Assembly (NCBI GenBank): GCA_028865095.1
Contig: JAGWLA010000001.1
Span: 47,244 to 111,243, forward strand
Length of the DNA: 64,000 nucleotides
Reading direction: 5' to 3'
Source: Patescibacteria group bacterium
GTDB taxonomy: Bacteria > Patescibacteriota > Minisyncoccia > Phycocordibacterales > PALSA-1337
This document shows, one piece after another, positions 50,221 through 61,266 of the stretch. The notes below the pieces were generated by a model. That model did not search any database and was not told the origin of the DNA. It worked only from the letters and a program-made list of their open reading frames with translations. Positions within the stretch are counted from its first letter, which is position 1, and every line of letters starts with the position of its first letter. Both the position numbers and the translations under genes were made by a program.

Positions 50221-50838
50221 ATGACCCACCGGACGAAGCACCCCAAGCACGAGCGCACGCTCGTCGTCATAAAGCCCGACGGCATCCAGCGCTCCCTTAT
50301 CGGCGAGATCATCAAGCGCTATGAGCGGATCGGCCTGAAGCTCGTCGGCGTGAAGATGCTCGTGCCCAGCGCCGAATTCGTGGAGAAACACTATACGCTC
50401 GACCCCGAATGGCGCATGAAGACCGGCTTGAAGACCCTCAAAGGCTATGCCGACAAGGGCTTGAAGCCGCCCATCGACGACCCGCTGGAGATCACCCGCA
50501 TATTGCTCAAGCGCCTCTCCGACTATCTGACCAAAGGCCCCGTTATCGCCATGGTCTGGCAGGGCGCCCATGCCGTGGAGATCGTCCGCAAGGTCACCGG
50601 CGGCACGGAGCCGTTGGCATCGGCCGATATCGGCACCATCCGCGGCGATTTCGCCCTCGATTCCTATCAGATGAGCGACGGGGACAGCCGTTCGGTGCGC
50701 AACCTCGTCCACGCCTCGGGCTCCGCCAAGGAAGCGGAAGACGAGATCGCCCATTGGTTCTCGGAAGCGGAGCTCTTCGACTATCATCTGCTCGTCGAGC
50801 AGATGATATACGGCCCTTCGCTTGACGGCATCCTTTGA
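50221..50838 (+). CDS. ndk: Nucleoside diphosphate kinase (long form with an insertion)
   Basis: ERTLVVIKPDG and NLVHASGSAKEAEDEIAHWF active-site region. Confidence 0.88.
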   Translation: MTHRTKHPKHERTLVVIKPDGIQRSLIGEIIKRYERIGLKLVGVKMLVPSAEFVEKHYTLDPEWRMKTGLKTLKGYADKGLKPPIDDPLEITRILLKRLSDYLTKGPVIAMVWQGAHAVEIVRKVTGGTEPLASADIGTIRGDFALDSYQMSDGDSRSVRNLVHASGSAKEAEDEIAHWFSEAELFDYHLLVEQMIYGPSLDGIL

Positions 50839-50851
50839 GGAGGACTACAAT
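50822..50851 (+). promoter_or_regulatory. Sigma-70-type promoter TTGACG-N18-TACAAT inside the 3' end of ndk, driving the candidate sRNA
   Basis: CTTGACGGCATCCTTTGAGGAGGACTACAAT. Confidence 0.45.
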
Positions 50852-50858
50852 ATACCCA

Positions 50859-51009
50859 GGGTGCGGGAGTAAACCCTATAAAATCTTTTACGGGAGACCG
50901 CATTCATCGGCATCTTGGTGCCGGCGAGAGGTCACCCACCTGGTATAACCAGGTTGACTCCCGCACACCTACGAAGGACGCCTGCATCCGAACGGACGCA
51001 GGCGCTTTT
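50859..51009 (+). ncRNA. Candidate structured small RNA (~150 nt): multi-hairpin fold closed by a 10-11 bp stem, then an intrinsic terminator
   Basis: GGGUGCGGGAGU (50859-50870) pairs with ACUCCCGCAC within 50957-50969, enclosing three hairpins (including CGGCA-UCUUGG-UGCCG and CCUGG-UAUAA-CCAGG). Terminator CGCCUGC-loop-GCAGGCG + CUUUU at 50979-51009. No matching known RNA family identified. Confidence 0.4.
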
Positions 51010-51055: not shown

Positions 51056-51061
51056 TATAAT
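51056..51061 (+). promoter_or_regulatory. TATAAT -10 box 6 nt upstream of ATG 51068 (leaderless)
   Basis: GGGTATAATGGGCCGATG. Confidence 0.45.
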
Positions 51062-51067
51062 GGGCCG

Positions 51068-52447
51068 ATGAGCGGCGATCGAGCATCGAGGCTGACGTTC
51101 GTGACGGGCGTAGGAACCGTGACCGGCGCCAATTTCCTGCTCGAAACGCCTGCAGGCTCGAAGGTCCTCGTCGACTGCGGCATGGTCCAAGGAGAGAAGG
51201 TGGCTCAAAAGGAGAATGCGGAAGCGTTCCCGTACGACCTCGCTTCCGTCTCCGCCCTGGTCGTCACCCATGCCCATCTCGACCACGTCGGCCGCATCCC
51301 CAAGCTCGTCAAGGATGGGTACCGAGGGCCGATATATTCGACGCCCCAGACGCTCGAGCTGGGGCGGCTCGTCCTCGAAGATGCCGTCGGCATCATCGCC
51401 GACGAAGCCCGCCGGAACGGGACCGAGCCTCTCTATTCCGCCGAAGACGTGGCCCGGATATTCCCTCAATGGAAGACGGTCGGCTACCATGAGAAGCTTT
51501 CCGTCGCGGCCGACGTATCCGTCTATCTCAAAGACGCCGGCCACATACTCGGATCGGCGATGGTCGAGGCTACGGTGGCCGGCGGCCCGAAGGTCCTCTT
51601 CACCGGGGACCTTGGGAACTCCCCGCACCCGCTCCTCCGCGACACCGAGCCCGTCGGAGACGTCGATTATATGGTCATGGAGAGTGTCTATGGGGACCGC
51701 AACCATGAATCGCGCGACGACAGGACGTCCAAGCTCCGCTCGGCGATCGACGAGACCATGAAGAAAGGAGGGACTCTCGTCATACCGTCGTTCGCCCTCG
51801 ACCGCAGCCAAGTGCTGCTCTACGAGCTCAACATGCTCGTCAGGGAAGGGAAAGCGCCGTCGGTGCCGGTCTTCTTCGATTCGCCTATGGCGGAGAAAGC
51901 CACGGCGGTATATGCCGCCAGCACGGGCCTCTTCAACGACGCCGCCAAAGCGAAGATCGCGGCGGGCGACAAGCTGTTCTCATTCCCGCATTTGAAGTTC
52001 GTCGAAGACCAGAGGGAGTCGCGGGCCATCGACGGCCTGAAGCAGGCCAAGATCATCATGGCCGGGGCGGGCATGTCGGTAGGCGGCAGGGTCATCAACC
52101 ATGAGCTCCACTATCTCTCCGACCCTAAGAGCACCATCCTTCTGGTCGGCTACCAGTCGCCCGGGTCGCTCGGCAGGGAATTGGCCGACGGGGCCAAGAA
52201 GGTCCGCATCCATGGCGAGGAGGTCGAGGTCAAAGCGGCGGTCGAGACGCTCTACGGTTTCTCCGCCCACAAGGACAGCGACCACCTGGTGGAGTTCGTC
52301 TCCACTGCGACGGACCGGCTGAAGCAGGTCTTCGTGGCTATGGGAGAGCCGGGCGCGTCCATGCACCTCGCTCAGCGCTTGAACGACGAGCTGGGCGCGC
52401 ATGCGGTCGTTCCGGAGCGGGGGACCGCGTATACGCTGGAAGCGTAG
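51068..52447 (+). CDS. RNA-metabolising metallo-beta-lactamase / beta-CASP family ribonuclease (RNase J-like)
   Basis: VTHAHLDHVGRIP (HxHxDH), beta-CASP motifs, C-terminal His. Confidence 0.75.
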   Translation: MSGDRASRLTFVTGVGTVTGANFLLETPAGSKVLVDCGMVQGEKVAQKENAEAFPYDLASVSALVVTHAHLDHVGRIPKLVKDGYRGPIYSTPQTLELGRLVLEDAVGIIADEARRNGTEPLYSAEDVARIFPQWKTVGYHEKLSVAADVSVYLKDAGHILGSAMVEATVAGGPKVLFTGDLGNSPHPLLRDTEPVGDVDYMVMESVYGDRNHESRDDRTSKLRSAIDETMKKGGTLVIPSFALDRSQVLLYELNMLVREGKAPSVPVFFDSPMAEKATAVYAASTGLFNDAAKAKIAAGDKLFSFPHLKFVEDQRESRAIDGLKQAKIIMAGAGMSVGGRVINHELHYLSDPKSTILLVGYQSPGSLGRELADGAKKVRIHGEEVEVKAAVETLYGFSAHKDSDHLVEFVSTATDRLKQVFVAMGEPGASMHLAQRLNDELGAHAVVPERGTAYTLEA

Positions 52448-55705: not shown

Positions 55706-56068
55706 GGGGATGATCGGCATAGACAATCGCCGGCGTCCGTTCGTGCGGCTCGAGCTCCGATGACTCGTAAATCCGTCGGAAACTCCGAAATGCCAACGTC
55801 AAATCGCCGTATTTCTCGGCACGCGACTTCGCATTCGCCCTCGCTTAAGTAGGGCGCGTCTCCTCGAGGGGATCCATACCTTGAGGCTGATGTCATAACC
55901 CGGATGTAGGGCAGGGCGCCTTCTCACCGCCCGGCCCGAAACAATGAGATCGCGGCCATGCGTTCTGCTCGATCTTCGAGCATGTCCGTCAGACTTAAGA
56001 TCGCGCTACAGCCGTAGAGTCGTCCGGTTCGCCTCGATTGCACGCGGGTTCGATTCCCGCCATCTCCA
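55706..56068 (+). ncRNA. ssrA: tmRNA (SsrA), immediately downstream of smpB
   Basis: 5' GGGGAUG acceptor pairs with 3' CAUCUCC + A. tRNA-like T-arm GGGUUCGAUUCCC. Resume region AAAUGCC AAC GUC... gives the predicted tag ANVKSPYFSARDFAFALA ending at UAA. CCA is not encoded. Confidence 0.8.
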
Positions 56069-56079
56069 CAACGACAAAA

Positions 56080-61182: not shown

Positions 61183-61256
61183 CCGCCCCTAGCTCAGTTG
61201 GTTAGAGCATCGAGCTTATACCTCGAGGGTCCTTGGTTCGAATCCAAGGGGGCGGA
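61183..61256 (+). tRNA. tRNA-Ile with anticodon UAU (reads AUA)
   Basis: Cloverleaf: acceptor CCGCCCC/GGGGCGG, U8, D-arm GCUC-AGUUGGUUA-GAGC, anticodon stem UCGAG/CUCGA, loop CUUAUAC (U33, anticodon UAU, A37), variable loop GGGUC, T-arm CUUGG-UUCGAAU-CCAAG, discriminator A. CCA not encoded. Confidence 0.8.
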
Positions 61257-61266
61257 CAGCATAGAG

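Follow-up and report, generated by a model that had tools for sequence, protein, structure and literature searches.

The locus described here lies in a 64-kb stretch of a Patescibacteria (Candidate Phyla Radiation, CPR) genome, hereafter the window, within which the RNA gene in question was searched for. The gene occupies positions 50858-51009 of the forward strand, and the local gene order is adk, map, ndk (50221-50838, +), the RNA and a gene for a beta-CASP metallo-hydrolase (51068-52447, +). An earlier reading of the letters alone (the sequence-only reading) had proposed a discrete, structured and independently transcribed small RNA of approximately 150 nt between ndk and its downstream neighbour, and the promoter, fold, terminator and conservation reported below bear this out. 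The same reading took the RNA to be novel and not an obvious known housekeeping RNA, without considering 6S RNA, and this part does not hold, as the sole recurrent family at the locus is 6S/SsrS (Rfam RF00013) and the core is common to Rfam-certified 6S RNAs. The interpretation favoured here, at a probability of roughly 85%, is that the locus encodes a shortened 6S RNA which would sequester the sigma-70 polymerase and template product RNA, where the homology is computed and the function inferred.

A promoter scan placed a -35 hexamer, TTGACG, at 50822-50827 (+), within the last ndk codons (LDGIL), and a -10 hexamer, TACAAT, at 50846-50851 (+), with an 18-nt spacer; this was the sole sigma-70-like site (50822-50851) in the 2 kb scanned, where 0.3 would be expected by chance. 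The promoter is retained across 68 homologues, in which positions were counted from the first nucleotide of the RNA model, as cTTGc at -35 to -31 and TAnAAT at -12 to -7 followed by a C-A start, and in some relatives, as in the window, the -35 element lies inside the final ndk codons. Because these elements sit at a fixed distance in the 68 homologues, transcription is predicted to start where the closing helix begins, at A50858 in the window, and the predicted primary transcript of 152 nt (50858-51009, +) then comprises a 6S-like core (50858-50970), a linker and a terminator, as delimited by the model matches and the end of the T-run. The linker, ACGAAGGA (50971-50978, +), is purine-rich and single-stranded, and position-specific counts over the homologues show it to be conserved and A-rich (consensus AnnAAARAC); processing or the binding of a protein could take place there. 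RNase J1 is known to mature and degrade the 6S RNAs of B. subtilis (PMC10578484). The intrinsic terminator (50979-51009, +) has the form CGCCUGC...GCAGGCG followed by C and UUUU, with a hairpin of -18.2 kcal/mol at 50979-51005 and the U-run at 51006-51009, and it went unlisted by the terminator scanner because its T-run is only 4 T long. Terminators with a hairpin of -6 kcal/mol or better and a T-run were found in 57/68 homologues, approximately 8 nt past the closing helix, giving predicted transcripts of 141-220 nt (median 168). The promoter overlapping the ndk 3' end and the terminator were found where the sequence-only reading had put them, and the predicted start agrees with its value of about 50858. 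The RNA has a gene to itself, bounded by a conserved promoter of the sigma-70 type and an intrinsic terminator.

A 156-nt stretch covering the RNA folds with a minimum free energy (MFE) of -77 kcal/mol, compared with -46.9 +/- 4.0 in dinucleotide shuffles (z = -7.6). In the MFE fold, GGGUGCGGGAGU (50859-50870) pairs with ACUCCCGCAC (50957-50966), the long-range pairing around approximately 100 nt that had been noticed earlier, and this closing, or 'downstream', helix runs on to 13 bp with one bulged A. Its 5' strand, AGGGUGCGGGAGU, occupies 50858-50870 (+) and its 3' strand, ACUCCCGCAC-A-CCU, occupies 50957-50970 (+), with compensatory changes and covariation in both of the alignments described below (A3 and A4). 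The 5' side of the central bubble (50871-50891, +) is a 21-nt A/U-rich segment, unpaired in both the MFE and centroid folds, that carries the motif CCUAUA at 50875-50880; no pair of the covariation-supported consensus structure falls there, and its length ranges from 20 to 28 nt across the family. The apical, or 'upstream', arm (50892-50937, +) has the form GGG-A-GACC...GGUC-A-CCC, in which the A.A mismatch is conserved, and also comprises an internal loop, a tip of 7 bp and, at 50914-50917, a CUUG loop; it is seen in both the fold and covariation helices 4-6, and aligns to Rfam 6S model positions 59-132, with GGGAG and CACCC invariant in a third alignment (A5). The 3' side of the bubble (50938-50956, +) opens with ACCU, forms the small hairpin ACCUGGU-AUA-ACCAGGU (50938-50954) and ends in UG, and CCCACCU is invariant both in the family and in certified 6S RNAs. 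The closing helix therefore encloses two structured elements only, the apical arm and the small hairpin, rather than the three internal hairpins of the cloverleaf-like four-way junction that had been envisaged, since 50871-50891 stays unpaired. On the modelled fold, the architecture of closing helix, large asymmetric bubble and apical arm is the 6S RNA layout and not a cloverleaf.

To follow the RNA among relatives, a covariance model (R1) was made from 16 relatives and rebuilt as R2 from 68. These models match the window at 50858-50971 (R1, 89 bits) and 50858-50969 (R2, 87 bits), and the model search found one RNA copy in the window. In the genome collection, the 80 ndk loci nearest to that of the window come from Patescibacteria, Paceibacterota or Parcubacteria metagenome-assembled genomes, apart from a few with other or no taxon labels, and the RNA was found on the ndk strand in 72-74 of them (R1/R2); two of the loci with no match end at the ndk gene itself. 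Across the 68-sequence alignment (A3), 92.4% of cells form standard pairs, compared with 70.4% when shuffled (0/500 shuffles reached the observed value), and pairing falls to 34-50% when the partners are slid by 1-3 columns. Compensatory changes on both sides were observed at 29/32 pairs. A scan of metagenomes that took no account of neighbouring genes, using a core pattern fixing 22 core bases, matched at least 120 stretches, and 73 of the 80 metagenome loci among the matches listed were full-length R2 matches. The alignment of this independent set (A4) gave 91.2% of cells paired versus 67.4% when shuffled, and all 12 closing-helix pairs are compensated in A3 and A4 alike, so that the comparative check suggested by the sequence-only reading comes out strongly in favour of the closing stem and of the fold as a whole. 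A gene on the minus strand, which would fold equally well, was rejected, as model scores on that strand in relatives do not exceed 25 bits, compared with more than 100 bits (maximum 134) on the plus strand, to which the promoter and terminator point as well. At one relative locus (L054) a second, more divergent copy of the RNA was observed (2851-2962, +; R2 45 bits), approximately 340 nt downstream of the first (2390-2512) and with its own terminator, and the two copies may be a 6S paralogue pair like 6S-1/6S-2.

6S RNA is a widespread bacterial RNA, described as nearly universal in bacteria, that holds RNA polymerase by mimicking an open promoter. At gathering thresholds, the Rfam search of the window returned only transfer-messenger RNA (tmRNA) and tRNA. 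At permissive thresholds, the best match at the RNA was RF00013 (27.6 bits, E = 8e-4 in a 451-nt search), spanning model positions 39-148 of 187. In this alignment the 5' bubble reads AgCCgAaaauuuu in the model and ACCCUAUAAAAUC in the window, the 5' side of the clamp reads GGG-a-gccc against GGG-A-GACC, its 3' side reads gggc-a-CCCACCUgg against GGUC-A-CCCACCUGG, and a further segment reads CaGGuU in the model and CCAGGUU in the window. Covered here are the most conserved positions of RF00013, written in upper case, including the A.A mismatch after three G-C pairs. RF00013 was also found exactly at the RNA in four relatives (L001, 25.5 bits; L054, 22.1; L009, 20.8; L052, 20.2), and the only other family touching the RNA among the relatives was a partial rsmX overlap (L062, 24.8 bits, E = 1.6). 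There were no Rfam matches at the RNA to signal recognition particle (SRP) RNA, RNase P RNA or riboswitch families, nor any covariance match to tmRNA or tRNA, even at E <= 10, and ARAGORN found no tRNA-like or tmRNA gene there, the tmRNA and tRNA of the window sitting elsewhere; on this point the sequence-only reading, which had set aside SRP RNA, tmRNA and RNase P RNA, was right.

The link to accepted 6S RNAs comes from the metagenome set. Seven R2-verified members outside the ndk context (L103, L138, L154, L107, L093, L094 and L091) are Rfam-certified 6S RNAs, scoring 55-79 bits against RF00013 in global alignment to model positions 1-187. They were found with the CPR-only pattern and R2 (42-57 bits, E <= 1.5e-5), E-values that overstate independence in that these bridging loci had been pre-selected by the pattern fixing 22 core bases. 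Independent of this selection is the exact match of accepted 6S RNAs to a CPR-derived pattern. Further R2-verified members have intermediate RF00013 scores (L145, 40.1 bits; L135, 23.8 bits), and the RF00013 scores of R2-recognised RNAs form a continuum from 20 to 79 bits. When the window RNA was aligned with the certified 6S RNAs (A5), it proved collinear with their inner approximately 115 nt. Invariant columns number 22, among them those of GGGAG, of CACCCACCU and of UGG in the CUUGG apical loop. The certified RNAs extend beyond this by approximately 25 nt on each side, into an outer closing helix (UCCCUGCGGUG ... CACGG..GCGGGGA) that is missing from the window RNA. By this sequence comparison the RNA is homologous to 6S RNA, with which it has in common the invariant GGG-A-G / C-A-CCC clamp at the upstream fork, the hairpin CCCACCU(G/A)G in the 3' bubble and, at 13 nt from the fork, the motif CC-N-A-Y-A.

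The last of these features bears on the predicted site at which product RNA would start. The motif CUAYA was found in the 5' bubble of 41/68 members. In 26 of these 41 the Y precedes GGGAG, whose first G opens the apical arm, by 13 nt, and in 39 by 12-17 nt. In the window the motif is CCUAUA (50875-50880), and the start is predicted opposite U50879, which precedes the apical arm by 13 nt; in A5, CC(U/A)AUA can be seen by eye at an equal distance in L103, L093 and L138. A start opposite Y would give a product RNA beginning 5'-(A/G)UAGG..., with GG at positions 4/5 and a template adenine beside the start, which for the window is 5'-AUAGG.... Conservation of both features across 6S RNAs, GG at positions 4/5 of the product RNA and an A next to its start, has been reported (PMC8414754), and a putative product-RNA start signature is thus present in the 5' bubble.

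From established 6S biology, the RNA would act as an open-promoter mimic in the active-site cleft of the sigma-70 (sigma-A) holoenzyme, damping transcription when nutrients are scarce, with the apical arm and the closing helix in the roles of the upstream and the downstream duplex, respectively, and the template supplied by the 5' strand of the bubble. On the return of nucleoside triphosphates or a nutrient upshift, polymerase would start opposite U50879 and copy toward the RNA 5' end, producing a predicted product RNA 5'-AUAGGGUUUACUC... (longer form 5'-AUAGGGUUUACUCCC) that begins 5'-AUAGGGUUUAC and would be complementary to 50879 back to approximately 50860. This product RNA would invade and unzip the 13-bp closing helix, leading to enzyme release. 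So minimal an RNA may be able to run the cycle, as 6S-1 RNAs cut down to the bubble and two short arms complete the full 6S cycle in vitro, with approximately 10-fold lower polymerase affinity (PMC8876501).

Compared with known 6S/SsrS RNAs (RF00013), the window RNA is most like the type of B. subtilis 6S-1 and Aquifex aeolicus. Common to both are the overall layout from closing helix through central bubble to apical arm, a 5' bubble that is A/U-rich and unpaired, a small hairpin in the 3' bubble and a separate promoter, in addition to the clamp, the CCCACCU and the CCnAYA motif at its 13-nt distance from the fork. A hairpin already formed in the 3' bubble is typical of B. subtilis 6S-1 and A. 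aeolicus 6S RNA (PMC8876501). The window RNA differs from known 6S RNAs in its 113-nt core, compared with approximately 160-185 nt, in having no outer closing helix and in ending at an intrinsic terminator reached through the conserved A-rich linker. The seven certified metagenome 6S RNAs have inter-element distances equal to those of the window RNA but retain the outer closing helix, are 158-163 nt long and occur in other genomic contexts. The truncated B. subtilis 6S-1 RNAs, which still bind polymerase, template product RNA and are released in vitro (PMC8876501), are laboratory constructs, whereas the window RNA is natural and clade-conserved. In E. coli 6S RNA (ssrS, b2911), the product-RNA start U44 lies in CCGAUA, comparable to CCUAUA in the window, and A131-G136, ACCUUG, the '-10-like' part of the 3' bubble, corresponds to the invariant ACCU(G/A)G, which is ACCUGG in the window. 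However, the E. coli RNA is 183 nt long with long arms, its 3' bubble is unstructured in the free RNA, and its gene adjoins that of 5-formyltetrahydrofolate cyclo-ligase (fau/ygfA), not ndk.

The genomic setting of the RNA varies among the relatives. The window and about 20 relatives have the beta-CASP gene immediately after the RNA, while in about 37/60 relatives a conserved open reading frame (ORF) of approximately 125 aa for a membrane protein sits between the two. This ORF (approximately 125-145 aa predicted, motif ..YDIFMHILGGIGIGL..) was observed at, for example, L004 3886-4428 and L010 3648-4093 and at approximately 35 other loci, and is absent in the window. Among the 73 metagenome members listed, ndk lies upstream in 40 and the beta-CASP gene downstream in 32, and about 20 have neither despite enough flanking sequence. 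Other contexts include aspS beside the RNA (L105, L160, L157 and L152) and, for certified 6S RNAs of approximately 160 nt, a position directly upstream of a rarA-like gene (L138 7059-7219, L103 7338-7500, L154 4868-5030 and L093 4949-5110), with pheT upstream in the first three of these. A 6S RNA near rarA has also been reported for lactic acid bacteria (PMC8414754). There were no instances of pheT, rarA or aspS in the window. The RNA is not tied to one neighbouring gene, and because its downstream genes vary and other contexts exist, the reading of it as a leader of its neighbour was rejected.

Several results weigh against a 6S assignment, beyond the pre-selection of the bridging loci noted above. 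The Rfam covariance search, put forward by the sequence-only reading as a check, gave RF00013 repeatedly as the best family, yet the 27.6 bits at the window RNA lie below the curated gathering threshold of 46.4, and there was no gathering-level match at the RNA in the window or in 20 ndk-linked loci. In the reverse direction, R2 did not detect the E. coli ssrS locus, its best score there being 7.4 bits and not at ssrS. The RNA is also small, its core measuring 113 nt, its closing arm 13 bp and its apical arm approximately 21 bp-equivalents (predicted transcript 152 nt, family median 168 nt), compared with approximately 160-200 nt for 6S RNAs as described, and the -35-like contact may be missing as a result of this shorter length. 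Finally, constrained folding of the 68 members showed no conserved rearrangement induced by product RNA: collapse-helix-like pairing resulted in 13/68 and an extended 3' hairpin in 6/68, with the window RNA itself able to form CGGGAG/CUCCCG.

The strongest of the competing explanations, itself improbable, is that the RNA derives from 6S RNA with a shifted function, such that it is no sigma-70 trap but might bind core polymerase in the manner of Ms1, bind another protein, or skip product-RNA release. Loss of the distal closing helix, the short arms and the lack of a predicted conserved refolding would all be compatible with such a shift, as would the reduced polymerase affinity of truncated 6S-1 RNAs (PMC8876501) and the conservation of the CUUG apical loop and A-rich linker. 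Against this, the invariant parts are the polymerase-facing bubble and the product-RNA start of canonical 6S RNA, and the truncated RNAs still carry out the full cycle in vitro. Ms1 RNA of Actinobacteria is a similar 6S-like rod with a bubble and associates with RNA polymerase, but it binds core polymerase, is approximately twice as long and is found in Actinobacteria only, with no sequence similarity to the window RNA seen in the present comparison.

Less probable still is the view closest to the sequence-only reading, that of an unrelated novel class of structured small RNA which has come to resemble 6S RNA by convergence on a helix-bubble-helix shape. The sub-threshold Rfam scores, the failure of the family's own model to detect E. 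coli ssrS and the lack of any link between 6S RNA and CPR bacteria among the papers searched would fit this view, but convergence on shape sits poorly with an invariant core identical in sequence to that of certified 6S RNAs, including the spacing, the A.A mismatch and the CCnAYA motif, and with Rfam scores forming a continuum, 20-79 bits, in RNAs that a single model verified. The least credible explanation is a cis element, either an attenuating leader or riboswitch of the beta-CASP gene or a structured ndk 3' untranslated region, for which the strongly conserved order of ndk, RNA, (membrane ORF) and beta-CASP gene and the terminator after the structure could be cited, but the immediate downstream gene differs among relatives, the RNA has its own conserved promoter with a predicted start at the first closing-helix base, the closing helix is fully apart from the terminator with no competing anti-terminator pairing seen (the three grounds on which a riboswitch or attenuating leader was rejected as a candidate), about 20 metagenome members have neither gene nearby, and the beta-CASP gene of the window has a TATAAT of its own.

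With respect to the neighbouring genes, the beta-CASP gene had been called RNase J-like, and the models indicate a CPSF-type beta-CASP nuclease instead: its best matches are Cas14 (MBL/beta-CASP) at 385 bits and aCPSF1 at 312 bits, each under its cut-off, compared with only 25 bits for the RNase J family model. The TATAAT of its own (51056-51061) ends 7 nt ahead of its ATG, which suggests that its mRNA is leaderless. By analogy with RNase J1 and the 6S RNAs of B. subtilis (PMC10578484), the conserved placement of the RNA beside this nuclease gene might point to a dedicated role of the enzyme in maturing the RNA 3' end or in turnover of the RNA. The ndk product is 205 aa long and matches the Pfam NDK domain in two stretches, a pattern that points to an internal insertion relative to the usual approximately 140-aa enzyme, and this long form is retained in CPR relatives at 67-78% identity. 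Elsewhere in the window, a tmRNA gene was found at 55706-56071 (+) as a full-length Rfam match of 106 bits, where ARAGORN on the same window gives none, and a tRNA-Ile with anticodon UAU (TAT) was found at 61183-61257 (+). A tRNA-Ile with a UAU anticodon is a rare bacterial way to read AUA, and its presence may be relevant to the question of whether TilS is present in the lineage. Among the relative loci, a DUF3800-IX RNA (L135 1533-1601, -; 55 bits, over its gathering score) was observed near the 6S-like RNA, and a 5'-truncated RNase P RNA (L041 1-237, +) at a locus edge.

The finding is a clade-conserved truncated variant of a known RNA, in a lineage for which the literature searched held no link between 6S RNA and Patescibacteria, CPR or Parcubacteria; it is not a new RNA class, and no new mechanism is revealed. 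Since the Rfam curated threshold misses the clade, standard annotation leaves these genomes without a 6S gene, a gap which the truncated form fills, and more than 140 sequences are now available to extend the 6S seed alignment. Beside the engineered minimal 6S-1 RNAs, the RNA also gives a natural case in which to ask what 6S RNA requires for capturing and releasing polymerase. A wider proposal, for which the odds are judged about even, is that a whole clade of ultra-small CPR bacteria (Paceibacteria-like Patescibacteria) uses a naturally minimised 6S RNA, consisting of a 113-nt core with no distal closing helix, a short apical arm and an A-rich linker to the terminator. If so, 6S RNA could do without its long arms and -35-like contact in vivo, and 6S-type global control of polymerase would persist in some of the most reduced bacterial genomes.

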